Shown here: positions 2,722 to 64,000 of the stretch, piece by piece
Layout: each line of letters starts with the position of its first letter
Position numbering within the stretch: position 1 is the stretch's first letter
Assembly: GCA_018664485.1 (NCBI GenBank)
Contig: JABJOE010000006.1
Location: 71,294 to 135,293 of the forward strand
Direction: 5' to 3'
From: Candidatus Uhrbacteria bacterium
Lineage (GTDB): Bacteria > Patescibacteriota > Patescibacteriia > UBA9934
DNA: 64,000 bases
Translations under genes and position numbers: made by a program
The notes under the pieces: model-generated
Databases searched by the model: none
Told to the model about the DNA's origin: nothing
The model's input: the letters and a program-made list of their open reading frames with translations, nothing else

Positions 2722-3351
2722 CTATGCGAAGTGTGAAACCATTTTTTCAATCGCTGCCTTTGAAGCAATGATGTACTGGTAACGAGCAAGATCACGAACA
2801 TTCAAGCTTTCTGCACCGATCGTTTCGGTTCGCTGAAGATTCTGTGCTCCACGAATCATAGATTCGTCACCCTTTACAGTAACAATAAGAGCCGTATTCT
2901 TTGCTCCTGGCAACTTCTGTCGCATCTCTGCAACAACCTTTGTCTTTGCCTCAGCCATGTCAAACGTATCAAGTGCAATGAACCTATCGTCTGCAACCTT
3001 ATCAGTTAGCATCATTGCCAACGCCTTTCGCTTAGCTTTCTTGTTGATCTTCTTTGAAAAGTTACGCAAAAGGTTAGGACCAAAAGTCACACCACCACCA
3101 ATCCAAATCGGTGATCGTCGAGAACCGTGTCGCGCACGACCTGTTCCCTTCTGCTTCCAAGGCTTACGTCCACCACCACGCACAGCAGATCGATCTTTCG
3201 TATTCGCACGAATGATTCGGGCGTTTGCACGCTGCGCAATAATAGCCTGGTGAACTAGCTCAGGAGATACCTCTACACCAAACAATGTATCAGGCAGTTC
3301 CTGTACTCCAGCTTTGGTTCCGTCCATTTTGTATAGATCTACGCTCGCCAT
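2722..3351 (-). CDS. rplD: 50S ribosomal protein L4
   Basis: 209-aa ORF, L4 family (GGGRKPWKQKGTGRAR). Confidence 0.92.
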   Translation of the reverse strand: MASVDLYKMDGTKAGVQELPDTLFGVEVSPELVHQAIIAQRANARIIRANTKDRSAVRGGGRKPWKQKGTGRARHGSRRSPIWIGGGVTFGPNLLRNFSKKINKKAKRKALAMMLTDKVADDRFIALDTFDMAEAKTKVVAEMRQKLPGAKNTALIVTVKGDESMIRGAQNLQRTETIGAESLNVRDLARYQYIIASKAAIEKMVSHFA

Positions 3352-3959
3352 ACGTCTCCGTTAGATGCTGCAATAATTACGTAACCTCCGCGTGCACCTG
3401 GAATTGCTCCTTTTACAGCAATAATGTTTTCTTTTTCGTTTACTTGAACTACTTCAAGGTTTTGAACCGTTACCTGTTGTCCACCCATGCGACCTCCCAT
3501 GCGAGTCCCTTTAAAGACACGCTGAGCACCGGTAGCACCAATAGAACCAGGCATACGTAGCTGATCTTTGTGACCATGAGACGCAGGTCCACCTTTGAAC
3601 CCATGACGTTTCACAACACCTTGGAATCCTTTTCCTTTAGCTGTTCCAATAACATTGACCGTTTCCCCTACCTCAAAGGCAGAAGCGACAACCTTGTCTC
3701 CTCTTGCTGGAGCTTCTCCGTCAATCGGAAACTCTTTTACAAAGGCAAATGCTCCAAGCTCCTTCCAATCCTCAAGCTGAGGTTTTGAAACGCTCTTCTT
3801 TGAACCAAATCCCAATGTAGCTGTTTGGACACCAGCTTGGTTTGTACGTACTTGCGTAATCGTACATGGCCCAGCCTGAATCAACGTGACCGGTACAACC
3901 GTTCCGTCTTCTCCAAAGACCTGAGTCATTTCAATTTTTCGTCCTAAAATTGCTTTCAT
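3339..3959 (-). CDS. rplC: 50S ribosomal protein L3
   Basis: 206-aa ORF, L3 family (GKGFQGVVKRHGF). Confidence 0.92.
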   Translation of the reverse strand: MKAILGRKIEMTQVFGEDGTVVPVTLIQAGPCTITQVRTNQAGVQTATLGFGSKKSVSKPQLEDWKELGAFAFVKEFPIDGEAPARGDKVVASAFEVGETVNVIGTAKGKGFQGVVKRHGFKGGPASHGHKDQLRMPGSIGATGAQRVFKGTRMGGRMGGQQVTVQNLEVVQVNEKENIIAVKGAIPGARGGYVIIAASNGDVWRA

Positions 3960-4277
3960 ATTCTCATGCTGACAGTGGAATCGCGGTTACTCCCCAATTC
4001 TTGATCAGTAATATTTGTTCGAACTTTTTACACGATCACAACTGATAATGCAAATGATGCGAACAAAAAACGAGAAGGCGTTCAATGAACGACACTCCCG
4101 CCTTACACAAATATAGTGTTAGGCATGTTTTAATTTCTCAAATGGCGGGTCCCTTTCTAGTGCACCTTACGGCGCCCCTCCGTACGAAGCGGCGAGAAGG
4201 TTTTCCTCGGCAATGCCTTGGATCTTTCTTCTCGGTCCGAGTTGGGAGAGTGTGTAGTGAGTATAAATCTCTTTGTA

Positions 4278-4397
4278 GGACTCACAGATTTGAGTTCAAT
4301 TTCGGTGCACAGGATGTCAGCGCCGGAGCCGTACTCAAGGTACGGTGACTAAATGAAAGGCTCCTGTAAGCCGGAAGTGGACCAAAGCTGTGAGTCC
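4278..4397 (+). ncRNA. Structured RNA element (copy D of a multi-copy family) in the 440-nt rplC-rpsJ spacer, oriented antisense to the ribosomal operon
   Basis: 10-bp closing helix ggactcacag/ctgtgagtcc; inner helix GGAGCC/GGCTCC; apical hairpin CCGTAC-TCAAG-GTACGG; 3' tail GAAGTGGACCAAAG homologous to copies at 22389, 29861, 45462; promoter-like TTGGGA..TATAAA at ~4239-4268 on the + strand. Confidence 0.45.
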
Positions 4398-4402
4398 TAA
4401 CT

Positions 4403-4732
4403 TTACATTTTGATTTCAATGTCTACTCCTGCTGGTAGATTGAGTGACATCAATGAACTGATTGTGCTTTCACTAGGACTGAGAATATCAATCAATCGCT
4501 TGTGAATACGCATCTCATACTGATCACGAGACTTTTTGTGCACAAAGGTCGAACGGTTAACCGTGAAACGACGCTTTTCAGTTGGCAATGGAACAGGCCC
4601 TAGGGTCTGCGCTCCAGTGCGCTGTGCAGTCTTCATGATCGTCTCACAAGCCGTGTCGATCAACTTGTGATCATACGCACGGATCTTGATACGAATGCGC
4701 TGTTTTGTTTCTTTGTCTGTTTTTGCGGTCAT
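4403..4732 (-). CDS. rpsJ: 30S ribosomal protein S10
   Basis: ORF to 4771, but the S10-like N-terminus (MTAKTDKETKQRIRIKIRAYDHKLID) begins at the internal ATG; this leaves a ~60-nt gap to tuf. Confidence 0.88.
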   Translation of the reverse strand: MTAKTDKETKQRIRIKIRAYDHKLIDTACETIMKTAQRTGAQTLGPVPLPTEKRRFTVNRSTFVHKKSRDQYEMRIHKRLIDILSPSESTISSLMSLNLPAGVDIEIKM

Positions 4733-4793: not shown

Positions 4794-5972
4794 TTATTCT
4801 ATAATCTTTGTTACAACTCCAGCTCCAACTGTTCGTCCACCCTCTCGGATAGCGAAACGCATCTCGTCTTCCATAGCAACAGTCTTACCAAGTTCAACAG
4901 TAACGTTAACTGTATCTCCAGGCATAACCATCTCAGAACCTTCCGGTAGAGCTACGATATCTCCAGTAACATCCGTTGTTCGAATGTAGAACTGTGGCTT
5001 GTAACCTTTGAAAAATGGCTTGTGTCGTCCACCCTCTTCCTTTGTCAAAGCGTAAATCTTTGCTTCGAACTTTGTGTGTGGCTTAACAGTACCAGGAGCA
5101 GAAAGCACCATTCCGCGCTCAATGTCATCCTTCTTAACACCACGCAATAGGATTCCAGCGTTGTCTCCAGCCATACCTTGGTCGAGGTTCTTGTTGAACA
5201 TCTCAACTCCAGTAACAACTGTCTTTGAAGTTTCTCGCAAACCAACGATTTCTACTTCTTCGTTTACGTTTACGATTCCACGTTCAATTCGACCAGTAAC
5301 AACCGTTCCACGACCTTCAATAGAGAAAACGTCCTCAATTGGCATCATGAATGGCTTTTCAGTCTCACGCTTTGGCTCAGGGATGTACTCATCCAAAGAC
5401 TTTACAAGCTCTTTGATTGGTCCCTCAGCGTCTCCACCGTCCTCGATAGCCTTTAGAGCAGATCCACGGATGATTGGTGTCTCATCTCCAGGGTATTCGT
5501 ACTGCTTAAGAAGATCGCGAACCTCCTCTTCAACTAGGTCGATCAACTCAGGATCGTCAACCATGTCAACTTTATTCAAGAAAACTACGATTGCCGGCAC
5601 TCCAACCTGACGAGCAAGAAGGATGTGCTCACGCGTCTGAGGCATAGGACCGTCAGCAGCTGATACAACCAAAATTGCACCATCCATCTGAGCAGCACCT
5701 GTAATCATGTTCTTCACGTAGTCCGCGTGACCTGGACAGTCAACGTGAGCATAGTGACGAGCCTCTGACTCATACTCCACGTGTGAAGTAGAAATAGTAA
5801 TACCACGCTCCTTCTCTTCTGGAGCATTGTCGATTTGGTCAAAAGCCTTCGTCTGAGAATCAGGTGAGAAGATCTTTGACAAAGCAGCCGTCAACGTAGT
5901 CTTACCGTGGTCAACGTGACCAATAGTACCAACGTTTACGTTTGGCTTACTGCGAACAAACTGTTCTGCCAT
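4794..5972 (-). CDS. tuf: Elongation factor Tu
   Basis: 392 aa; [22 protein letters not shown] GTPase motifs. Confidence 0.97.
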
Positions 5973-6198: not shown

Positions 6199-6621
6199 TT
6201 ACTCAATCGGTTCAAGATAGAACTGCTCTTCACCTAGATCATCCGCTTTTGCAGACCCTTGATCTGGTGCCTCGGGTATTGGAGGGTCAAATGGAACGTC
6301 CTCAACAGTCACTTCAGGGGCTTCAGATACAGCCTCTTCTCCAGGGAATGGAAGGTCTTGGTCCATTTCTTGCAAAGGGACCTCGTCAGGCACGCTGTAC
6401 TCAGTGTTTTTCATCGTTTCTTCCGAAGAATATGGCCAATCTTCGTCAATAAATTCACCATCAACCTCTTCTTCACCCATAATGAGGCCGTCAACCATGG
6501 CTTCATAGGTCTCCAAAGGAAGCAAAACAGCCGGTTCATCACCATCTTGATCGGTAACAATTACTGGTGAGCCGGTTTTCTTTGCTAGGCGAAGTAGTCG
6601 TTGCATTGTTTGTTTATCCAT
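6199..6621 (-). CDS. Hypothetical highly acidic protein; N-terminal ~50 aa resemble a Phd/YefM-type antitoxin fold (weak)
   Basis: ORF 6199..6657; probable start at MDKQ; segment SPVIVTDQDGDEPAVLLPLETYEAMVDGL followed by a long D/E/P-rich tail. Confidence 0.4.
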   Translation of the reverse strand: MDKQTMQRLLRLAKKTGSPVIVTDQDGDEPAVLLPLETYEAMVDGLIMGEEEVDGEFIDEDWPYSSEETMKNTEYSVPDEVPLQEMDQDLPFPGEEAVSEAPEVTVEDVPFDPPIPEAPDQGSAKADDLGEEQFYLEPIE

Positions 6622-6756
6622 ATAGCCGCATCTTAATCGAAGGAGAGATAACGTCAAGACGTAAAGTTACTTATATGCACAAATCCCCCAGCGCAAGCGC
6701 CGAGGGAAGAACGTGCCATTTAATGGCAAAGTTGTGACTCAGATACTAGGTCGATC

Positions 6757-6793
6757 GTTTTCGCATATGCAGTTACGCTGCGTATGCGAAAAT
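6757..6793. terminator. Hairpin gTTTTCGCATATGCAG-ttacg-CTGCGTATGCGAAAAt downstream of the response-regulator gene
   Basis: ~15-bp stem with one mismatch, flanked by T/A runs. Confidence 0.4.
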
Positions 6794-6822
6794 TACCGTT
6801 CTATTCCGATTTGGGCCTGGAC

Positions 6823-7299
6823 TCAGCTCTTTGGAGCCTGAATTGACGGCTGTTTCGGGAGCCACTCAGCAAGAGTGAGAAGAACGAACGGGGGAAGCTT
6901 CCCTCTCGTGACGAGCATGGTGACGATCATCGCCACCAAGACAGCCCGGGCGATCGGCTTACTTCCGAACAGCACACCAGCAGGAACCAGCGTACTGTGA
7001 AGCCCTGTCTGCATGAGAAATGGAATCCCGTGACGTCCGATCACGCCAGACGATTCCCTGAGAAACTCAGGCCCGCCCATGCGGTTCATACTGACGTCAC
7101 ACAGGATGAAATCGATCTCCGATCCTCGATCGGCCACGACCGCCATAGCATCCGTTCCGTCTTCCACCAGAATGACCTCGCCAATGGCGATGTCCAAAGC
7201 CTCGAATGTACGACGCAGCATGCGTTCCATGCCGCGCAGAATCGCCCCCTCATCGTCAACGACGAGAAAACAGATAGGTCTGGGTTCACCAGTATTCAT
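6823..7299 (-). CDS. Single-domain CheY-like response regulator (REC) with hydrophobic C-terminal tail
   Basis: VVDDE, phospho-acceptor-like FILCDVSM, KP motif (GSKPI); C-terminal ~40 aa hydrophobic; locally GC-rich; start chosen at MNTGEPRP. Confidence 0.6.
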   Translation of the reverse strand: MNTGEPRPICFLVVDDEGAILRGMERMLRRTFEALDIAIGEVILVEDGTDAMAVVADRGSEIDFILCDVSMNRMGGPEFLRESSGVIGRHGIPFLMQTGLHSTLVPAGVLFGSKPIARAVLVAMIVTMLVTRGKLPPFVLLTLAEWLPKQPSIQAPKS

Positions 7300-7395
7300 T
7301 TCTCTACCTCCAGATTCGCATACACCAACACGGCGCATGACTGAGCATAATGCCATATTATATGGCTTTTGTCAATCCCCACCCTACAAACAAAA

Positions 7396-7441: not shown

Positions 7442-9547
7442 CTATGACTTCTGACCAGTTCGTTTTTCCTTAATTTCTTTTGCAACGTTTCCTGGCACCT
7501 CTTTATACTCATGGAATTCCATTGAGTAACTTGCACGACCCTGTGTGATGGATCGAAGGTTTGTTGCATATCCGAACATCTCAGCAAGTGGAACGATAGC
7601 TGCGACCGTCTTTACATCTCCACGATCACCCATCTCCTGAACCTGGGCACGCTTTGAGTTTAGGTCACCAACAACAGTTCCCATGTAATCTTCTGGAGTT
7701 ACAACTTCGACTTTCATAGTTGGCTCAAGAAGTACTGGTTTTGCCTTGAGTGCAGCCGCTTTAAACGCCATCACACCTGCCATTTTAAAGGCTGATTCGT
7801 TTGAGTCAACATCATGGTATGAACCATCGTAAACAGTGGCCTGAATGTTGATAAGTGGGTAGTTAGCGATAACACCACGCTCGAGAGCCTCTCTACAACC
7901 CTTTTGCACAGCTGGAACATACTCACGTGGAATAGCTCCACCCTTCAACTCATCAACGAATCGGAAGTTATCCAACTCACCATCTTCATTTGCTTCTGTA
8001 ATAGGTTTGATACGAAGCCGACAATGTCCGTACTGACCACGTCCACCTGACTGCTTAACGTACTTTCCTTCACCCTCAGCTTCCTCACGAATCGTTTCAC
8101 GGTAACTCACCTGCGGTCGTCCAACGTTTACTCCAACGTCGAACTCACGCTTCATTCGATCAACAATAATTTCCAAGTGAAGCTCACCCATTCCTGACAC
8201 AATAGTCTGCATTGTCTCCTCGTCCGATCGAACACGGAATGTAGGATCCTCTTCAGACAACTTCTGCAAAGCAAGTGACATCTTCTCCTGGTCCTGCTTT
8301 GTGATCGGCTCAAGTGCCAAAGAAATAACAGGCTCAGGGAATGTGATTGACTCAAGTGAAATCGGGTGTTCCGGATCACACAATGTGTTACCAGTTGTAG
8401 TTTCTTTCAATCCAACAACAGCAGCAATTTCACCAGCGTATACCTCGCTCACTTCCTCTCGGTTGTTTGCGTGCATTCGCACAATACGAGAAATTCGTTC
8501 TTTCTTTCCGGTAGATGCATTCAATACGTAAGATCCAGATTTCAATGTTCCAGAATAGATTCTAACAAATGCCAACTTTCCAATGAACGGATCAGTTGCG
8601 ATCTTAAAGGCAAGTGCAGCCATCGGTACATCGTCCTTAGCCTCACGCGAAAGTACTTTTTCTTCGTCCTCAATATCAGTTCCTTCAACAGCCGGAATAT
8701 CCAACGGAGACGGAAGATAATCAATAACAGCGTTCAACATTAGCTTCACACCCTTGTTCTTCAAGGCTGTTCCACACATAACTGGGAAAATATCCAAACC
8801 GATAACGGCCTTACGCAAAATTCGTTTCAAATCCTCGTATGAAGGCTCTTCTCCAGCAAGGTACTGCTCCATTGCAGCTTCGTCATTTTCAACGATTGCT
8901 TCGATAAGCTTTCCGCGCCATTCCTTTGCTGCGTCCATGTATTCAGCTGGAACATCAACCTCATCGATATCCTTTCCAAGCTCGTCGCGATACATGAATG
9001 CCTTCATCTTTAGAAGGTCGATAATACCGTCGAAACCAGCCTCTTCTCCGATTGGAAGCTGAATTGGGTAAGCCTTCTTTGTAAGACGATCAGTAATTGA
9101 CTGAAGGTCTTTGAAAAAGTCTGCTCCAGTTCTATCAAGCTTATTGATAAAACAAATACGTGGCACGCTGTACTTATCAGCCTGGCGCCAAACCGTTTCT
9201 GACTGAGGCTCAACTCCTGCAACACCATCAAACACAGTCACACCTCCATCAAGCACACGCAATGATCGCTCAACTTCTACTGTGAAGTCAACGTGTCCAG
9301 GTGTATCGATGATGTTAATACGGTGGTCCTTCCAGAAACATGTAGTCGCTGCAGACGTGATAGTAATTCCACGTTCCTGCTCCTGCTCCATCCAGTCCAT
9401 CTCAGCCTCACCTTCATGCACCTCACCAATCTTGTGCTTTTTTCCAGTATAAAAGAGAACTCTTTCTGTAGTAGTAGTCTTTCCTGCGTCAATGTGGGAA
9501 ATGATTCCGATGTTTCGAACATTGTCTAGAGAATATTCACGAGCCAT
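7442..9547 (-). CDS. fusA: Elongation factor G
   Basis: 701 aa; [20 protein letters not shown] domains IV/V. Confidence 0.97.
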
Positions 9548-10095: not shown

Positions 10096-10257
10096 ATTTA
10101 TATGGTTTAAGTGTGACTTCCCGCCGCGTTCTGGCGGTACTCACTATTTATAATTTACTCAGTTGGCACATTTGGACCAATTTCAGAGTATGGAAGCGTC
10201 CGCAGAGTGCAGGGCAATCCATTTGCTGAAAATGATCCAAATGTATTGATCTTAAAT

Positions 10258-21520: not shown

Positions 21521-21750
21521 ATCAGTACATACGTATTTGGACTATTTTCAGCTTATGGGGCCCCGCCACTCACTCAATGACCGAGTGGGGTTGTTTCGAG
21601 AGATGGCTCCCTGTGCACGCGACACAAGCCTCAAATACCTAAGTCCTTTACTAAGTCATGACAAGGATACCGCGAGGTGGCGGTAGTGGCAACCAATTGA
21701 CAACCCTTATATAAAGAGACATTGTATATAAACACTACAACTCGAGGCTG

Positions 21751-22146: not shown

Positions 22147-22388
22147 TCCCCAGCGATCACTCGTCGCCGCCCACGAGCCGCTCGCTTGTAGGGCGGTTCA
22201 TTGCATCCAAATTACTAAATATCAAGAACCAATTAACAAGTATCCAAACAAATCAATATAAAAAACTCTGAGGTGTATGAGATGTCGTTGAGACAAGAAT
22301 AAAGAAGATAAATAAAATTCACACAGGTGGATGAGATATCGATGAAGCAAAAAAGCGCAGCAAAAAAACATTCATATTTGTGGTCAAT

Positions 22389-22477
22389 TCTAGGCGCGGG
22401 GAAAGTGATGAGGAGACGTACTCATAGTACGTTGACGAATCACTGTGGCCCCGCAACAACGAAGTGGCCCAAATAGG
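22389..22477 (+). ncRNA. Structured RNA element (copy B of the multi-copy family) within an 800-bp ORF-poor intergenic region
   Basis: TAGGCGCGGGGAAAGTGATGAGGAGACGTACTCATAGTACGTTGACGAATCACTGTGGCCCCGCAACAACGAAGTGGCCCAAATAGG; nested helices GCGGGG/CCCCGC, AGTGAT/ATCACT, ACGTAC/GTACGT. Confidence 0.45.
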
Positions 22478-22962
22478 AATGTTTTTTCGACTCTTTGGTG
22501 CTTCAAGTAAACCGCTCGTAATATAGGTCTCCCTCTATATATGGGCAATACGTCCGAAATCGACGACCGATTGAGCAAGGGAACCTCTGCAAGCTGACAT
22601 GCAGTTTGCAAAAGGCCCTGGCCCAAGGCGACGTCACCCGACCGCGTGATAACCGCCGGATCCCCGCTGATCCCGCCCCCCTTACAACAATCGACTTCAT
22701 TCATCTTCTATAGGTAGACGAATTTAGTTTCGTACTACGTTTAGAATAAAAGGTAATTATTGGAAAAGGGGCGGGACAGCAAGACTACGTATTCTCGCAG
22801 ATAATTCAGTGTTAGCTGAACTCACGGATCCTTTCAATGTAAATTAGTCCAATTACGACACCATTTACCTGAAGCACTTATAGTATCCCACCCAAACTAA
22901 ACCTATGCAAGAAAAAACGGCAGATCTTATCCACCGTTTTTCCACTAACCGCACACAAGTTC

Positions 22963-26906: not shown

Positions 26907-29843
26907 CTAAACTACGAAGTTCATCATCCTCCCCTTCACGTAGATAACCTTCTTTACCTCCCCCTCAACGAACTTTGCAACATTTTCGTTTGCTCTTGCA
27001 GCAGCCTCAACCTCTTGCTGCGGAGCGTCGGGTGCAACCTCGAGCGTTGCTCTTAATTTTCCATTTACCTGGACCGCGAGCGTAATAACATCATCAACCA
27101 CTTGTGACTCGTCATACGCAGGCCACTTTTGTTGCTCAACAAACCCTGTAGCTCCAAGGTTCTCCGCAACTTCGTTTGCGATATGAGGGGCGAATGGGCA
27201 CAGAGTATACATGAACATCAGCAAAGACTCTTTTGTAAGTGCCTTGTGTTTGTTTACGACATTAATGAACGTCATCATCTGGGCGACAGCTGTATTGAAT
27301 CGTAAATTCTCAATATCTTCTCCCACTTTCTTTACAGTTTTATGTAACGCCTTGGTCACTTCTTTATCTTCCGAGATTGATACCATGTCTGGAAGCCTTG
27401 CGACCTTATCCAAGAAACGTCGAGTACCGATCATACCCTTAGTATTCCATGGAGCCGGCTCTTCAAAAGGTCCAACGAACATTTCGTACATGCGCAGAGT
27501 GTCCGCACCGTACTTGTCGACTACCTCATCTGGATCAATTCCGTTACCCTTAGACTTGGACATCTTCGTACCATCTTCAGCAAGGATCAAGCCATGGCTA
27601 TGTCTACGAGCATAAGGTTCGCTCACCGGGACATGACCTCGGTCGAACATCACCTTGTTCCAAAAACGAGAATATAGAAGATGCAGAACCGTGTGCTCCA
27701 TTCCACCATTATATAAATCAATTGGCATCCAGTACTCAAGCTTCTTCATGTCTGCAAAAGCTTCGTCGTTATGTGGATCAATATATCGGAGGAAGTACCA
27801 AGATGACCCTGCCCAGTTTGGCATAGTATCAGTCTCACGTTTTGCAGGACCATTACATGTCGGACACTCCGTATTCACCCAGTCGGTAATCGCAGAGAGT
27901 GGAGACTCACCGTCGTCTGTTGGCTGGTACTGATCTACCTCTGGAAGCTCAACCGGGAGCTGATCCTCGGGAACCGGAATCCATCCACCAGTTTCGGGAG
28001 AACAAGAATCACAATGGATCAAAGGAATCGGTTCACCCCAATAACGTTGGCGGGAGAACACCCAATCTCGAAGTTTATAGTTTACTGTCTTTTTTCCATG
28101 ACCGTTCTTTTCAAGCCAGGCGATCATCTCTTCTTTTGCTTCGTCTACTTTTTTCCCATCCAAGAAGTCGGAGTTGACTGACAACCCTTCTCCAGCATAC
28201 GCCTCCGCGTCAACGGATCCGCCGGACACAACCTCAACGATCGGTAAATCAAACGCCTTTGCAAACGCCCAATCTCGCTCGTCATGCGCCGGCACTGCCA
28301 TAATTGCTCCCGTTCCATATCCCATCATCACATAGTCTGCTACCCAAACAGGAATCTGTGCACCATTAGCTGGATTTACAGCGTAAGCACCAGTAAATGC
28401 ACCTGTCTTTTCTTTTGTGCCATCTCCTCGATCAATGTCTGACTTTTTTGAAGCGGCCTTCACGTAGGCCTCAACTTCAGCGCGTTTGTCATCCGTAACA
28501 ATCGTACTTACTAACGGATGTTCAGGCGCCAACACCATGTACGTCGCACCAAACAATGTATCCGGCCGCGTTGTGAAGACTTCAATTGATGGAATCAGTT
28601 GCGACAAGATAACTGGCTCTTCCTTACCGTTAAAATGACCTACCTCAGCCTCTGCTACTACCAACTCTCCTCGAAGATTGTTTGCAATCTGTACCGGATG
28701 ATCTTGAGGAACTGCCGGATCATTTTTATCTGCCAAGACAGTAAACCGTTTTGCCATTTTACTTATCGCACCAAAATCAAACTTCCAGTCACAGCAATCT
28801 CGAAGTGCTGGGCGTTCTTTTCCGTCCAATAGCTCCACATTCACAGGAGGTGCCACCATAATCACATGGCTAACCGGCGTATCCAAAGTTGGAAGTAGCT
28901 TCATAGCTGCGACACCGCCGAGCGAATGCGTGATAACAATAGTCTTCTCATTAAACGTATAGCTTTCTTTGATAAACTTGATTTGTTCTTCAATGTTTGG
29001 CTCCGATGGATTTGGCAAGTCTAAAACAGTAACACTCGCTCCGCGCCCTTCAAGCTCAGCTGACAACCATGGCCAAAACGCTTCCTTAGAATCATCCCGA
29101 AAGGCATGCAATCCAAGGATATTGTAACCACTTAAATCTGTATCAACCGTAAAATCAACTTCAGCTCCTTCGCTCCGTCCAATCCAATCCTGCTGCTGCT
29201 TTTTAATCTTTGGAAGATAGTCCACTGTGTCTAAATCATCGAGTAACCGTTGAGCGTACTTTGTAATCGCAATCATCCATTGCTCTTTGTCGCGCTTTTC
29301 AACCTCTCCTCCGCAGCGCTCACAAGCACCACCTACAACCTCTTCATTTGAAAGACCGATCTTGCATGACACACACCAGTTGATAGCCATCTTATCTTTG
29401 TACGCAAGTCCTTCTTTGAAGAACTCCAAAAACTGCCACTGAGTCCACTTGTAATAAGACGGGTCGGTTGTGTTTACCTCTCGTGACCAATCAAAACTAA
29501 TTCCAAGCGACTGAAGCTGCCGGCGGAAGGTGTCGATATTTTCCTTTGTCACCTCCTGAGGCTTTCGACCAGTCTTAATTGCATAGTTCTCCGTTGGAAG
29601 CCCAAAAGCATCCCAGCCAATCGGGTACAGAACATTAAATCCCTCCATTCGTTTTTTGCGAGCAAGAATATCGAGCGCCGTGTAGCTTCGGGGGTGACCC
29701 ATGTGCAGGCCTGACCCTGACGGATACGGAAACTCAATCAAACAATAAAATTTCTCTTTGTCAGAAAAATCTTCGGCATGAAAAACGCCCTCATCCTCCC
29801 AGCGTTTTTGCCACTTCTTATCAATCGATGAATGGTTATACAT
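26907..29843 (-). CDS. leuS: Leucyl-tRNA synthetase with an inserted RBBP9/YdeN-like alpha/beta serine-hydrolase domain before the CP1 editing domain
   Basis: 978 aa; HMGH and KMSKS class I motifs, TTRPDT and AVPAHD editing-domain motifs, C-terminus ..KKVIYVKGRMMNFVV; ~180 extra aa (aa ~236-418) containing FWPWL, LPNP, ITHSLGG, KNDPAVP, VGHF. Confidence 0.93.
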   Translation of the reverse strand: MYNHSSIDKKWQKRWEDEGVFHAEDFSDKEKFYCLIEFPYPSGSGLHMGHPRSYTALDILARKKRMEGFNVLYPIGWDAFGLPTENYAIKTGRKPQEVTKENIDTFRRQLQSLGISFDWSREVNTTDPSYYKWTQWQFLEFFKEGLAYKDKMAINWCVSCKIGLSNEEVVGGACERCGGEVEKRDKEQWMIAITKYAQRLLDDLDTVDYLPKIKKQQQDWIGRSEGAEVDFTVDTDLSGYNILGLHAFRDDSKEAFWPWLSAELEGRGASVTVLDLPNPSEPNIEEQIKFIKESYTFNEKTIVITHSLGGVAAMKLLPTLDTPVSHVIMVAPPVNVELLDGKERPALRDCCDWKFDFGAISKMAKRFTVLADKNDPAVPQDHPVQIANNLRGELVVAEAEVGHFNGKEEPVILSQLIPSIEVFTTRPDTLFGATYMVLAPEHPLVSTIVTDDKRAEVEAYVKAASKKSDIDRGDGTKEKTGAFTGAYAVNPANGAQIPVWVADYVMMGYGTGAIMAVPAHDERDWAFAKAFDLPIVEVVSGGSVDAEAYAGEGLSVNSDFLDGKKVDEAKEEMIAWLEKNGHGKKTVNYKLRDWVFSRQRYWGEPIPLIHCDSCSPETGGWIPVPEDQLPVELPEVDQYQPTDDGESPLSAITDWVNTECPTCNGPAKRETDTMPNWAGSSWYFLRYIDPHNDEAFADMKKLEYWMPIDLYNGGMEHTVLHLLYSRFWNKVMFDRGHVPVSEPYARRHSHGLILAEDGTKMSKSKGNGIDPDEVVDKYGADTLRMYEMFVGPFEEPAPWNTKGMIGTRRFLDKVARLPDMVSISEDKEVTKALHKTVKKVGEDIENLRFNTAVAQMMTFINVVNKHKALTKESLLMFMYTLCPFAPHIANEVAENLGATGFVEQQKWPAYDESQVVDDVITLAVQVNGKLRATLEVAPDAPQQEVEAAARANENVAKFVEGEVKKVIYVKGRMMNFVV

Positions 29844-29860
29844 AGTCGTATTTTATATTT

Positions 29861-29950
29861 GGTCCATTTCGTTGTTGCGTGGGCCCTGTGTCTCGTCATC
29901 GTACGGAAAAGTACGATTTCTCGTCACTTTCCCCGCGCCTATAACTGAAC
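29861..29950 (-). ncRNA. Structured 5'-leader RNA element (copy A of the multi-copy family) immediately upstream of leuS
   Basis: In gene orientation: TATAGGCGCGGGGAAAGTGACGAGAAATCGTACTTTTCCGTACGATGACGAGACACAGGGCCCACGCAACAACGAAATGGACCAAATA, then ~18 nt to the leuS ATG; homologous to copies B, C, D. Confidence 0.5.
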
Positions 29951-30044
29951 TCAAATACCAAAACACGATACAAGTTCGCAGTCAGAGTACGGCGAAATAG
30001 CAAAAAGGGCAAGATTATTGGTATAAATCCGACCCTTCTTATCT

Positions 30045-41783: not shown

Positions 41784-41942
41784 ATGAAGAACTTACGTAT
41801 TTGGACCATTTTAGACTTATGGAGCCTCTATTGAAGCTCATCGTACAATATTAGTACGCCTGGTACAAACGCCTCCATGTATTGAAACCGATCTCAAATA
41901 TGAAAGTTCTTTCGAGCGAATGCTCGCTTTTTGACATTTGCT

Positions 41943-41981
41943 GCAAATGAAAGACCGCCCCTGAGACCGCGAGGCGGTCTC
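41943..41981. terminator. 17-bp perfect hairpin GACCGCCCCTGAGACCGC-gag-GCGGTCTCAGGGGCGGT downstream of the secreted-protein gene
   Basis: Perfect inverted repeat seen in the sequence. Confidence 0.55.
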
Positions 41982-42002
41982 AGGGGCGGTACGCGGTTGC
42001 GC

Positions 42003-45430: not shown

Positions 45431-45461
45431 AATCAGGATATTTCTAGGTTTGATGTATACA

Positions 45462-45550
45462 AGGCGTGGGTGGCTGACAAGGAGTCGTACTAGAAGTACG
45501 GTGACGAAGTCCGACGGGCCCCACAACACAGTAGACGGCAAACCTAGGAG
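45462..45550 (+). ncRNA. Structured leader RNA element (copy C of the multi-copy family) upstream of tRNA-Arg
   Basis: AGGCGTGGGTGGCTGACAAGGAGTCGTACTAGAAGTACGGTGACGAAGTCCGACGGGCCCCACAACACAGTAGACGG; helix GTGGG/CCCAC shows compensatory change relative to copy B (GCGGGG/CCCCGC). Confidence 0.45.
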
Positions 45551-45638
45551 TGTCCTGCGGCGTTAGCTTCCACCTTCGCTGAAGCTACGGTCGACAAGCA
45601 GCTGGTAATACACCCAGCTTCGCAAACCACAAAATTAT

Positions 45639-45715
45639 GCGGCGTTAGCTCAGCTGGATAGAGCGTCTGGCTTCGGACCAGAAGGTCGGGGGTTCGAACC
45701 CCTCACGCCGCACCA
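45639..45715 (+). tRNA. tRNA-Arg (anticodon TCG), CCA encoded
   Basis: Cloverleaf: acceptor GCGGCGT/ACGCCGC, D-stem GCTC/GAGC, anticodon stem TCTGG/CCAGA with loop CTTCGGA, T-arm GGGGG-TTCGAAC-CCCTC, discriminator A, CCA. Confidence 0.9.
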
Positions 45716-45750: not shown

Positions 45751-45800
45751 GTGCAAATTTACCGCAGGTTAATTCTGGACGTAGTCCAGGTGTGAGGGGC

Positions 45801-46025
45801 TTACCGAGTGGCCAAACTGAAAGTTTGTTGGAACGAGGCTATACCCATAAGTGTGTAGACCGGGGGAGATTGCCGAGATATCGAACCGAAGGTTCATAGA
45901 TATCGAGGCTATACCCCTAAGCACGATAACGAGTTACTCGCATTTAAATACATTAAGTACTCATGTCGAAAGGGCTTGCCGAGTGGTCAAACCATAGGTT
46001 TGTTGGAGCAAGGCTATACCCCTTT
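45801..46025 (+). repeat. Three imperfect ~50-nt direct repeats, each ending AGGCTATACCC, with tRNA-Ser/Leu-like D-arm fragments (GCCGAGTGG)
   Basis: 45807-45856, 45876-45926, 45973-46022; units 1 and 3 are ~80 percent identical. Confidence 0.6.
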
Positions 46026-46086: not shown

Positions 46087-46800
46087 CTACTTTGTCTTTT
46101 TTACCCAGCCCTTTGCAGTAAGAGCGTTTCGCGCTGCATCAATCTGTGCCTCCTGTTTTGATGTCCCCTTACCTTCTGCTGCCAACTCCTTTCCAAGATA
46201 CGCACCGATGCGGAATATCTTATCGTGATCTGGCCCAGACTCTTCAAGGACTTTATAGTTTGGTGTTGTAGATAAACGTGCCTGAGCCTCTTCTTGAAAC
46301 TGACTCTTGGGATCAATGTACAATTCTTTCTCCATTATCTCATCAAGCGTTGCGATAATAAACTTATGTACAAAGTCACGAGATTCATCCCATCCAAAGT
46401 CCAAATACAAGGCACCGATAATAGCCTCCATAGTATTTGCCAAGATGTAGTTGCGGGCCTTCTCATTACTGTCCTGAGACTCTCCACGAGAAAGGAAAAG
46501 GTACTGCTCAATATTCATGCTATGACCAACCTTCGCTAGGTTCTGTCCGTTTACAAGTGCTGCTCGGAAGTTAGTGAGCTCCCCTTCTGGTTTATCGAAC
46601 TTTTCAAATAAAAATTCGGTCACCACCAACTCCAAAACTGCATCTCCCAAGAACTCCAACCGCTCATTATGATGCAGCGGGAAGTCATGATGTTCATTGA
46701 GATAGGAGCGATGGACAACCGCTTGTTTCAGGTGCCCATCCTCTTTGTACTCTATCCCAATTATCTTTGCCAACTCCTCAACAGGTTTTCGTTCTGCCAT
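46087..46800 (-). CDS. rnc: Ribonuclease III
   Basis: 237 aa; ERLEFLGDAVLELVV RNase III signature plus C-terminal dsRBD. Confidence 0.93.
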   Translation of the reverse strand: MAERKPVEELAKIIGIEYKEDGHLKQAVVHRSYLNEHHDFPLHHNERLEFLGDAVLELVVTEFLFEKFDKPEGELTNFRAALVNGQNLAKVGHSMNIEQYLFLSRGESQDSNEKARNYILANTMEAIIGALYLDFGWDESRDFVHKFIIATLDEIMEKELYIDPKSQFQEEAQARLSTTPNYKVLEESGPDHDKIFRIGAYLGKELAAEGKGTSKQEAQIDAARNALTAKGWVKKTK

Positions 46801-54607: not shown

Positions 54608-55870
54608 ATGTCTGATACATCAGAACTACATAAGCTGCTCGAAGAGCAGGACCAGTACCTAGCCGTTCCCGGACTAGGTGATTTAATTTCTGCGACAGTT
54701 TTGTCTACAAAAGGTCGAGAAATTCGATTGGACGTTAACGGTCTGATGACCGGAACAGTTCGAGGAAAAGAACTTTTTACAGAGAGCGGTGACTACTCTA
54801 ACCTTCAGCCTGGAGATAAGGTTGAAGCTACAGTCATCGATCTTGAAAACGAAAATGGAGAAGTTGAGCTTTCATTCCGCTACGCTGGAAACAAGAAAGC
54901 TTGGGAGGAGATGCGCTCACAGCTAAGCGACGGTGAAGTTATCGACGCCAAGGTGTTAGACGCAAACAAGGGTGGACTTATTATGAAGGTTCGACACTTG
55001 CAAGGTTTCCTTCCTGTGTCACAGCTTGCTCCTGAGCACTATCCACGAGTTAGTGGTGGTGACAAGCAGAAGATTCTAGATAAGCTTCGTGAGTTTGTTG
55101 GTCAGAAGCTTCGTGTGAAGATCCTTGACCTACACGAGTCAGACGAAAAGCTAATCGTTTCAGAAAAAGCTGTTTGGGAGTCTGAACAAAAGAATATTAT
55201 CGACCAGATTTCAGTTGGACAGGACATTGAAGGTGAAATCACAGCACTTGCTGATTTCGGAGCCTTCGTAAAGTTCTATCCAAAAGGAGATGGTGCTACA
55301 GCACTTGAAGGTCTCGTACATATTTCCGAGATTGCATGGCAGCGAATTGATCATCCGAAAGATCTTCTCAAGGTACACCAGAGTGCAAAGGCGCAGATCA
55401 TCGGAATTGAAGGTTCTAAGATCTTCCTCTCTATGAAGAAGTTGATCGCTGACCCTTGGCAGAACGTTGAATCAAAGTACCAGGTTGGAGATGTCGTTGA
55501 AGGAACGATCCTCAAGGTAAACCCATTTGGATTCTTCGTTGAGTTGGACGCTGACATTCATGGACTAGCTCACGTAAGTGAACTTTCAAGTAAGCCAGTA
55601 ACTGACCCTAAGACTCTCGGAAAGGCCGGAGAGAAGAAGGAATTCAAGATTGTATCAATCGAACCTGCTGAGCACAGACTTGGTCTATCTCTAAAAGCTA
55701 TGGAAGCTGGAGGTGAGACAACTGAGAAAGCTCCAAAAGCTAAAAAGAAGAAGGAAGCTGAAGTTAAGGAGGAGGCAGTGGAAGAGGTAAAAGCTGAGGA
55801 AGTAGTGTCTGAGGACGCTGCGACCGAGGAAGTGAAGACTGAGAAGAAGGAAGAGGAAACAAAAGAATAA
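54608..55870 (+). CDS. rpsA: S1 RNA-binding domain protein (ribosomal protein S1-like, 4 S1 repeats) with KE-rich C-terminal tail
   Basis: 420 aa; repeated S1 OB-fold units (G..V.G.V..I..FGAFV). Confidence 0.8.
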   Translation: MSDTSELHKLLEEQDQYLAVPGLGDLISATVLSTKGREIRLDVNGLMTGTVRGKELFTESGDYSNLQPGDKVEATVIDLENENGEVELSFRYAGNKKAWEEMRSQLSDGEVIDAKVLDANKGGLIMKVRHLQGFLPVSQLAPEHYPRVSGGDKQKILDKLREFVGQKLRVKILDLHESDEKLIVSEKAVWESEQKNIIDQISVGQDIEGEITALADFGAFVKFYPKGDGATALEGLVHISEIAWQRIDHPKDLLKVHQSAKAQIIGIEGSKIFLSMKKLIADPWQNVESKYQVGDVVEGTILKVNPFGFFVELDADIHGLAHVSELSSKPVTDPKTLGKAGEKKEFKIVSIEPAEHRLGLSLKAMEAGGETTEKAPKAKKKKEAEVKEEAVEEVKAEEVVSEDAATEEVKTEKKEEETKE

Positions 55871-63527: not shown

Positions 63528-63579
63528 CTTCTACACAACTTCTTACTCCCCGTGATTGAAAATCACTGGGGACCCACCA

Positions 63580-63924
63580 ATGAACATGACTCGATCGTGT
63601 CCATCGGCGGGATTAACAACCTCCCGAACGGCAGTAATGCCAAGGACACCCATGCCCATGCTCCTCGCCGCCCTCGCCATCATTGCTGGCGTCGCCGCTT
63701 TCCGAACCTGGAGTGAGTTCCTCACTCGCAACTACGTGTGGAGGAATTTTACCTCCGTCACGATCTGCATCGCCGCGTTTGCGGCATTCCTCTCCCTCAT
63801 CCATTTCGATGGAAAGGCAGCGATCCACATGCTCACCGCCGTCCCGGGAACCGTCCTGCTCGGTGTCTGCATGGCCGAGATCTCGTCTAAGTGGTTGACC
63901 CCGAGCAACCCTGCGACAACCTGA
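63580..63924 (+). CDS. Small membrane protein, first of two tandem paralogs (MNMTRSCPSAG..)
   Basis: Start context GGACCCACCAATGAACATG repeats at 63951-63993 before a third truncated copy (MNMIRSCASVG..) running off the window. Confidence 0.5.
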   Translation: MNMTRSCPSAGLTTSRTAVMPRTPMPMLLAALAIIAGVAAFRTWSEFLTRNYVWRNFTSVTICIAAFAAFLSLIHFDGKAAIHMLTAVPGTVLLGVCMAEISSKWLTPSNPATT

Positions 63925-64000
63925 AACGTCGTCCCCGCGATCGAATTCGCGGGGTCCACCAATGAACATGATTAGATCGTGTGCATCGGTGGGAATCCTT

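Follow-up and report, generated by a model that had tools for sequence, protein, structure and literature searches.

In the window analyzed here, a 64-kb stretch of the Candidatus Uhrbacteria contig JABJOE010000006.1 (coordinates are positions in this stretch), the genes for ribosomal proteins S10 (rpsJ) and L3 (rplC) are separated by a 443-nt spacer that is a composite of three parts: a structured, putative leader RNA encoded on the operon strand (4058-4247), a long hairpin that belongs to a multicopy family and is designated hairpin D (4273-4401), and a segment ahead of rplC (3960-4064). On balance, with somewhat better than even confidence, we interpret 4058-4247 as a cis-acting ribosomal-protein (r-protein) leader, or attenuator, and hairpin D as a separate copy of an intergenic hairpin. 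Judged by analogy, the leader is most likely an undescribed, widely conserved member of the r-protein leader kind; neither the literature searched nor Rfam 15 yielded a Patescibacteria r-protein leader or RNA motif that matches the leader or the hairpin family.

Conservation and structure of the candidate leader RNA

The preliminary description of this DNA treated the spacer as splitting a normally contiguous rpsJ-rplC junction and proposed comparing the junction in relatives. Both genes were located in 80 related genomes, and the gap could be measured in 77; in GTDB, the closest relatives by rplC are Uhrbacteria, Magasanikbacteria, and Parcubacteria metagenome-assembled genomes (MAGs). The gap spans 142 to 1130 nt in all 77 of these Patescibacteria junctions, and the median spacer length is 309 nt (78 spacers, including the window's own). 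Thus, the gap is long in every relative measured, and therefore the premise of an interruption is wrong for this lineage and something conserved occupies the gap. The comparison did reveal conserved structure, as anticipated, but the long gap is lineage-wide and the conserved RNA lies on the operon strand.

When the operon-strand sequence of the spacer was used as an nhmmer query, relatives matched only its middle part (~4059-4247), not hairpin D, and iteration of the search recovered the motif in 26 homologous spacers. Twenty-two sequences make up the alignment of the leader (A1), R1 is its covariance model, and a second model, R2, was built from six copies of the hairpin. In the window, the leader runs through helix P1, an A-rich internal loop, P2, a linker, P3, and an intrinsic terminator with a U6 tail, as follows.

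4058-4247, minus strand: structured RNA of ~190 nt, the candidate leader/attenuator (R1, 101.4 bits, E = 4e-22)
4193-4234, minus strand: P1, CGAGAAG (4228-4234) paired with CTTCTCG (4193-4199); 92.8% paired, three pairs changed on both sides
4223-4227 (5' AAAGA) and 4200-4203 (3' AAAC), minus strand: conserved internal loop inside P1
4204-4222, minus strand: P2, a variable hairpin enclosed by P1
4100-4124, minus strand: P3, a hairpin of GCCTAACAC and GTGTAAGGC; 6/7 pairs changed on both sides
4065-4100, minus strand: intrinsic terminator, stem 4087-4100 with 4071-4083, loop ATT, TTTTTT at 4065-4070

The CGAGAAG/CTTCTCG stem had been noticed before, and its identity is now apparent: it is P1 of the operon-strand leader. 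In A1, the order of elements is GAACC, P1, the almost invariant internal loop (5' AAAGA, 3' AAAC), P2 closed by UC...GA, a GCUUCG box, a UAGAAAGGA box, an A-rich linker, and P3 (CCCUAAG/CUUAGGG type), and the 3' end is formed by a long hairpin, GGCUAGAAGCC...GACUUCUGG, followed by U5-6. Across the 22 aligned sequences, the internal-loop bases are mostly invariant or at least 90% conserved. The helices vary in sequence while remaining paired: 90% of cells in the four-helix structure pair and 19/29 pairs change on both sides, whereas none of 500 shuffles reaches the observed score and slid partners pair in 38 to 55% of cells. For example, P1 occurs as GAGAAG/CUUCUC, as AAGGAG/CUCCUU, and, in distant lineages, as CAGAU/AUCUG; the terminator is 95% paired, with both-side changes in 9/12 pairs. 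RNAalifold independently gives P1 and the terminator, and a single-sequence fold of the window recovers P1, P2, P3, and the terminator, the inner stem of which was also flagged as terminator-like by a scan of the window. Terminators of the canonical hairpin and U-tract type occur elsewhere in the window, e.g., after tRNA-Arg. The U-tract and many G-U pairs are present on the operon strand only, and therefore the polarity of the RNA is fixed.

R1 matches 49 of the 80 related loci at E < 0.01, in each case on the operon strand and immediately ahead of rplC; these loci include MAGs labelled Uhrbacteria, Magasanikbacteria, and Parcubacteria. Over the 64-kb window, it has no match at E ≤ 1 beyond the one in the spacer, and in the 674 kb searched, the remaining matches at E < 0.01 are reverse-strand echoes of spacer matches. 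The modelled leader ends a median of 28 nt ahead of the rplC ATG (range, 6 to 287 nt). In the window, the terminator lies ~105 nt ahead of the rplC start, and the intervening segment is specific to this genome; in four relatives (loci L003, L005, L007, and L015), its counterpart is missing and rplC starts 6 to 7 nt past the modelled leader. The genes and segments around the leader are as follows.

4403-4732, minus strand: rpsJ (S10), identified by its open reading frame (ORF), translation, and Pfam Ribosomal_S10; upstream neighbor of the spacer
3960-4402: rpsJ-rplC spacer, 443 nt
3960-4064, minus strand: segment between the terminator and the rplC ATG, with two hairpins (fold z -3.13); genome-specific
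3339-3959, minus strand: rplC (L3), the first gene past the leader
4794-5972, minus strand: tuf, upstream of rpsJ
7442-9547, minus strand: fusA, farther upstream

The minus-strand order is fusA, a response-regulator gene, a PhdYeFM-like gene, tuf, rpsJ, the spacer, rplC, rplD, rplW, rplB, rpsS, rplV, and rpsC. The str operon is unusually interrupted in that the response-regulator gene (6823-7356) and the PhdYeFM-antitoxin-like gene (6199-6621) lie between fusA and tuf (6199-7356, minus strand).

A candidate attenuator and its alternatives

A conserved domain followed by a terminator ahead of r-protein genes is the signature of an attenuation leader, and we infer r-protein binding and termination because of it. 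The leader would be cotranscribed with tuf-rpsJ and act in cis. An excess of a downstream-encoded r-protein would bind the 5' domain (P1, the internal loop, and P2); the likeliest candidate ligand, by analogy with the E. coli S10 leader, is uL4, and uL3 is the product of the nearest gene. Binding would favor the terminator and so lower transcription of rplC-rplD-rplW-rplB and beyond, whereas without the protein, a GCUUC box in the linker could pair with GAAGC in the terminator 5' strand and serve as an antiterminator. The gene rpsJ, being upstream of the control point, would be expressed with tuf. The earlier suggestion that the spacer holds a cis element of the polycistronic transcript fits the spacer outside hairpin D.

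The linker carries the GCUUC box together with a GAAAGG box. The GCUUC box, conserved just past P1, is the best partner of the terminator 5' strand in most sequences, and the complementarity between GCUUC and GAAGC is present in 14 to 20 of the 22 sequences at each of the five positions. A universal switch between P1 and a terminator strand was also considered and rejected: the similarity is limited to the Uhrbacteria-like clade, the P1 sequence being different in distant lineages. Complementarity to the terminator 3' strand (z < -1.5) was detected immediately ahead of the rplC ATG in 18 of 49 genomes. Its compensatory variants include CUGAC/GUCAG and CUGGC/GCCAG, and these sequence patterns suggest a second, translational layer of control in such relatives, resembling the one in the E. 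coli S10 leader. No complementarity between the pre-ATG segment and the terminator 3' strand is seen in the window. Loci with the complementarity include L003, L005, L007, L009, L036, L051, L053, and L075.

Several observations weigh against attenuation by an r-protein. The ligand is a guess by analogy, and both protein binding and termination are predictions. The proposed antiterminator pairing lacks covariation support (175/500 shuffles reach the observed score) because both boxes are nearly invariant, and the GCUUC/GAAGC pairing is weak in the window's own sequence. A comparison of the leader with E. coli 16S and 23S rRNA gave no convincing mimicry, the shared words being short and common (GAAAGG and AACCGAGA); resemblance to the rRNA site that the protein binds is frequent among r-protein leaders, although not obligatory. 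The terminator looks strong, such that efficient read-through would need an active mechanism, and it is followed by a conserved T-tract and then GTTA. In some relatives, -10-like boxes lie 9 to 10 nt before the rplC ATG; these boxes and the conserved T-tract and GTTA could mean that rplC has a promoter of its own, in which case the RNA would be a 3' untranslated region (3' UTR) element of rpsJ. Finally, the polarity of the hairpin family in D is opposite to the operon, which sits poorly with D acting in the operon mRNA.

Several of these observations bear directly on an alternative that we consider possible although improbable, namely, that the RNA is the 3' UTR and terminator of the tuf-rpsJ unit, perhaps yielding a stable 3'-UTR-derived small RNA, and that rplC and the following genes are transcribed from their own promoter. 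The element would then set the ratio of EF-Tu and S10 to the other r-proteins constitutively, or act in trans, with no sensing of r-proteins. The strong terminator, the conserved sequence past the U-tract (TTTTTnnGTTA), and the TANNNT-like boxes 9 to 10 nt ahead of the rplC ATG in L003, L005, and L007 are in keeping with this alternative, as is the suggestion of leaderless mRNAs from many genes of this genome, in which a -10-like box lies 6 to 9 nt before the ATG and a Shine-Dalgarno sequence is missing. However, the distance from terminator to ATG varies widely (6 to 287 nt), a promoter scan calls nothing in the window's own 105-nt segment, and a plain terminator would have no need of the conserved domain of 120 nt ahead of it, in which the internal loop is invariant. 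Moreover, the motif is always tied to rplC, including at L044, where only 700 nt of upstream sequence is available and rpsJ is out of reach. Far less probable is a leader that serves as a BoxA site for antitermination or autoregulation by NusB and S10, or as a small-molecule riboswitch. The gene just upstream encodes S10 (NusE), a few leaders (L078 and L028) carry the BoxA-like GCUUUAACAA, and BoxA-mediated control of rpsJ has been proposed for other bacteria (PMC5725501). Nevertheless, the mean best Hamming distance of the leaders to BoxA (GCUCUUUAACAA-like, the E. coli consensus, which may not be that of this lineage) is 4.33 compared to 4.40 for shuffled sequences, and only 2/49 leaders come within two mismatches; a BoxA site for NusB-S10 in the linker was accordingly rejected, there being no enrichment over shuffles. 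As for a riboswitch, the downstream genes encode ribosomal proteins rather than metabolic functions, and no Rfam riboswitch matches the spacer.

We give virtually no credence to a small protein gene in the spacer, whether frameshifted in this assembly, as the preliminary description had considered, or overlooked. ORFs are present, one of 87 amino acids on the plus strand (4085-4348) and others of 42 to 45 amino acids on the minus strand. However, as had been judged from its translation, the plus-strand ORF is not credible: neither this ORF nor three further spacer ORFs has a Pfam match at E ≤ 1. No conserved ORF was found among the 78 homologous spacers, in which the longest operon-strand ORF has a median of only 29 amino acids, and the conservation observed consists of compensatory base pairing and insertions and deletions of arbitrary length. 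An assembly error is unlikely because two other samples carry the identical sequence over the covered portion of the spacer; in all, three other samples match the window identically, two of them overlapping the spacer, and therefore informative population variants are absent. The spacer is thus noncoding, as first described, and it is structured: both strands fold far below the energies of shuffled sequences (z -4.66 and -4.69), with 0/100 shuffles equally stable. Rfam 15, searched with the whole window at the gathering threshold, returned only tRNA-Arg, and with the spacer at E ≤ 10 only a single chance-level match (13 bits, E = 3.1).

Hairpin D and its family

Hairpin D adjoins the rpsJ stop codon, 5 nt away, and is one of six strong copies in the window of the element family noted earlier (R2, 73 to 124 bits), which is real; a seventh copy is weak. 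The opposite strand of these six copies never scores above 27 bits. The perfect 10-bp helix described for copy D is present. The copies are listed below, with the identities of adjacent genes based on Pfam.

4273-4401, plus strand in family sense, antisense to the operon: hairpin D (R2, 119.4 bits on plus, 19.7 on minus)
4278-4287: 5' arm (on plus) of the D closing helix, GGACTCACAG, perfect over 10 bp
4388-4397: 3' arm (on plus) of the D closing helix, CTGTGAGTCC, perfect over 10 bp
21521-21651, minus strand: copy A, ending at the ATG of a murA-type gene
22361-22488, plus strand: copy B
29842-29971, minus strand: copy C, ending at the leuS ATG
41784-41914, minus strand: copy E, ending at the ATG of a class II tRNA synthetase gene, presumably proS
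45434-45558, plus strand: copy F, with tRNA-Arg ~80 nt downstream

The family hairpin is ~125 nt long and has the core CUA-GGCGCGGGG...AG-GAG-NCGUAC-loop-GUACG-NUGAC-GA...GGGGCCCCGCAAC-NACGNAG. This core is highly conserved across genomes in which the GC content of the element ranges from 32 to 64%, and the closing helix is unique to each copy. A pattern scan of metagenomes found 18 loci, 18/18 of which were confirmed by R2; an Rfam scan of seven loci with family members gave no match. Among 24 family sequences, 88.9% of cells pair and 29/32 pairs change on both sides, values that no shuffle equals. Relative to flanking genes, 10 of 22 copies are sense, 7 antisense, and 5 unclear. Family-sense copies end 3 to 10 nt before start codons, including those of murA, leuS, proS, trpS, pnp, the atp operon, and rplN in rpsQ-[element]-rplN. 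Conversely, copies in antisense contexts abut an opposite-strand stop with their 3' end: rpsJ (in the window and L020) and genes in L084, L087, L089, L091, and L094. All 22 copies are more stable as family-sense RNA (mean difference, -12.9 kcal/mol), and for D the minimum free energies are -63.7 kcal/mol on plus and -48.4 on minus. The outer helices contain 17 G-U pairs to 3 A-C mismatches in sense contexts and 13 to 1 in antisense contexts. These asymmetries point to selection on the family-sense strand, the plus strand in the case of D.

Two metagenome contigs from a relative of this genome (L093 and L099) have the arrangement atpA-[element]-atpG-[element]-atpD, with both gaps filled: the copies start 10 to 11 nt past the upstream stop and end 3 to 5 nt before the next ATG. 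In the window, the 162-nt rpsL-rpsG spacer (10096-10257, minus strand) contains CAUUUGGAUCAUUUUCAG...CUGAAAUUGGUCCAAAUG, which is related to the family but short and lies in operon sense (fold z -5.35).

At the rpsJ-rplC junction itself, family copies were found in the same spacer of two other rplC loci, L020 and L006, both antisense to the operon. The L020 copy lies directly past the rpsJ stop, as in the window, and the L006 copy past the leader terminator. A D copy orthologous to that of L020 was considered and rejected: the position shared by the two is not simple orthology because the core subtypes differ, being of the TAAG type in D (as in A and E) and of the GCAAC type in L020. The closest relative, L003, has no D at this site even with filters off; it has a strong hairpin after the rpsJ stop that is different from D. 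More generally, a strongly structured segment lies between the rpsJ stop and the leader in 28/38 relatives (median z -4.4).

Modelled as part of the operon transcript, D would probably be an insulating, 3'-end-stabilizing, or RNase III-type processing hairpin. Such a role is simplest in cis because the complement of D also folds into a hairpin (-48 kcal/mol), with the perfect 10-bp helix closing it, and the window encodes RNase III (46087-46800). D forms 44 to 47 pairs on either strand between rpsJ and rplC, as fits an RNase III-type hairpin, cleavage itself being a prediction. The preliminary description had raised instead an antisense regulator of the operon, and we regard as unlikely, though compatible with the attenuator, a plus-strand RNA that starts at ~4274, driven by the TATAAA box, and that overlaps the rpsJ 3' end and regulates tuf-rpsJ or the leader. 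Part of that idea stands, in that D on the plus strand opposes the operon and strand selection favors plus, but the dominant conserved RNA is operon-sense and D is missing in L003. The polarity of the family (119 bits on plus, 20 on minus), the better folding of 22/22 copies in sense even where they are antisense to flanking genes, the 13 G-U pairs to 1 A-C mismatch in the family-sense reading of antisense-context outer helices, the likewise antisense orientation of the copies in L020 and L006, and the U-rich sequence past the hairpin on plus are all consistent with an antisense RNA. However, the conserved core accounts for part of the energy asymmetry, the antisense orientation of 3/3 same-spacer copies is not statistically significant, and the D and L020 copies, being of different subtypes, are not orthologous. 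The promoter claimed for the plus strand fares similarly: TTGGGA (4242-4247) and TATAAA (4262-4267) are both present, the latter 10 nt ahead of the D helix, but they are only 14 nt apart and the promoter scan is silent; the promoter and its transcript are hypothetical. A promoter inside or upstream of the hairpin copies was sought by reading the sequences and rejected, the -10-like boxes ahead of the other copies being inconsistent.

Even less probable is that D is a selfish miniature mobile element, like miniature inverted-repeat transposable elements (MITEs), REP, or Correia, without function in the spacer. Many intergenic copies per genome in both orientations (six or seven in 64 kb) and presence or absence that varies among relatives at one site would be expected of such an element. 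However, a MITE is unlikely because the closing helices are copy-specific, a search for target-site duplications and flanking direct repeats found none, and conservation is in the internal core rather than at the termini. Furthermore, copies within one genome are highly diverged and yet paired, with 29/32 pairs changing on both sides, and the bias of G-U over A-C, 36 to 5, points to selection on a single strand. A broader proposal, which we put forward tentatively and think doubtful as it stands, is that the D family is a new class of functional single-stranded RNA of Patescibacteria, in which sense copies punctuate polycistronic transcripts and D-like copies are independent antisense RNAs. 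If so, sense copies could yield near-leaderless mRNAs in a genome largely free of Shine-Dalgarno sites, and two controls would be stacked in the rpsJ-rplC gap, one an antisense hairpin RNA and the other an attenuator that senses an r-protein.

Three further observations concern the surroundings of individual copies. Copy B lies in an 815-nt gene-free region (22147-22962) with repeats (22279-22312 resembles 55488-55521) that may hold more noncoding RNAs. Beside copy E, on the plus strand (41915-41990), are a terminator-like hairpin, CGAGCGAATGCTCG followed by TTTTT, and a perfect GC-rich palindrome (41953-41990); no plus-strand gene lies upstream for the hairpin to terminate. Directly past hairpin F (45559-45600, plus strand) is a second occurrence of the first 12 nt of tRNA-Arg (GCGGCGTTAGCT), ~80 nt ahead of the genuine tRNA-Arg (45639-45715); this could be a tRNA remnant or a processing-related duplicate.

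Other features of the window and comparison with known systems

Most genes in the window have no Shine-Dalgarno sequence and have instead a TANNNT-like box 6 to 9 nt before the ATG, often with (A/T)AT abutting the ATG; this sequence pattern suggests that leaderless mRNAs are widespread in the window. Downstream of tRNA-Arg and its terminator (45797-46021, plus strand) are three tandem copies of a ~55-nt motif, GGGG..UGCCGAG-[variable hairpin]-GAGGCUAUACCCC, the middle one with a fold z of -4.3; the motif has no Rfam match. The leucyl-tRNA synthetase (26907-29843, minus strand) contains an inserted Ser_hydrolase domain (PF06821) at residues 253 to 407. Finally, a 44-nt direct repeat, 86% identical (63569-63612 and 63951-63994), flanks or overlaps a doubtful ORF (63613-63969, minus strand).

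Patescibacteria, also known as the candidate phyla radiation, are uncultured bacteria with tiny genomes whose gene regulation is very little known. As far as Rfam 15 and the literature searched show, the leader would be the first r-protein leader described in this group. If it functions as proposed, the S10 operon would be split elsewhere than in model bacteria, with S10/NusE grouped with EF-Tu upstream of the control point, and the leader would offer a defined 190-nt RNA for questions of uL4 or uL3 binding and rRNA mimicry. The hairpin family is abundant, undescribed, and conserved over the sampled lineages, located at gene boundaries within essential operons, and its role bears on the expression of polycistronic mRNAs where Shine-Dalgarno sites are few.

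The E. coli S10 operon leader combines uL4-mediated, NusA-dependent attenuation with translational control. Like it, the leader described here is a structured cis RNA with a terminator hairpin before rplC-rplD-rplW-rplB and later genes, and in about a third of the relatives the terminator 3' strand is complementary to the first downstream start. Unlike the E. coli leader, it lies downstream of rpsJ rather than before it, so that S10 escapes control; its host lineage is Patescibacteria, no similarity in sequence or structure was detected (Rfam 15 gave no match), and the ligand is assigned by analogy.

R-protein leaders that work through terminators are known (for an overview, see PMC7247131). 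The B. subtilis rplJL (L10) leader, which acts by transcription attenuation (PMC4538822), likewise has a conserved structure upstream of r-protein genes with a terminator as the expression platform; it differs in architecture and operon, no model matches, and the antiterminator proposed here is a 5-bp complementarity without covariation. An L4 leader candidate in Archaeoglobi, upstream of rplC, rplD, rplW, and rplB (PMC7247131), has the identical downstream gene set and a ligand assigned by analogy only, whereas it is archaeal and different in structure, and no Rfam family matches our spacer beyond chance (E = 3.1).

The D family differs from the ERIC, Correia, and REP elements in that its internal core, not its termini, is conserved, and in that the core occurs in many Patescibacteria lineages. 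It is unlike these elements and the R sites of phage T7 also in having no target-site duplications and a wobble bias that is strand-specific even in antisense contexts, and cleavage of the D family is a prediction. Nevertheless, like the T7 R sites and the ERIC, Correia, and REP elements, the family consists of long imperfect hairpins with internal loops between cistrons, and like the latter three it is multicopy and found in both orientations, at sites that include atpA-atpG-atpD, rpsQ-rplN, and rpsJ-rplC.

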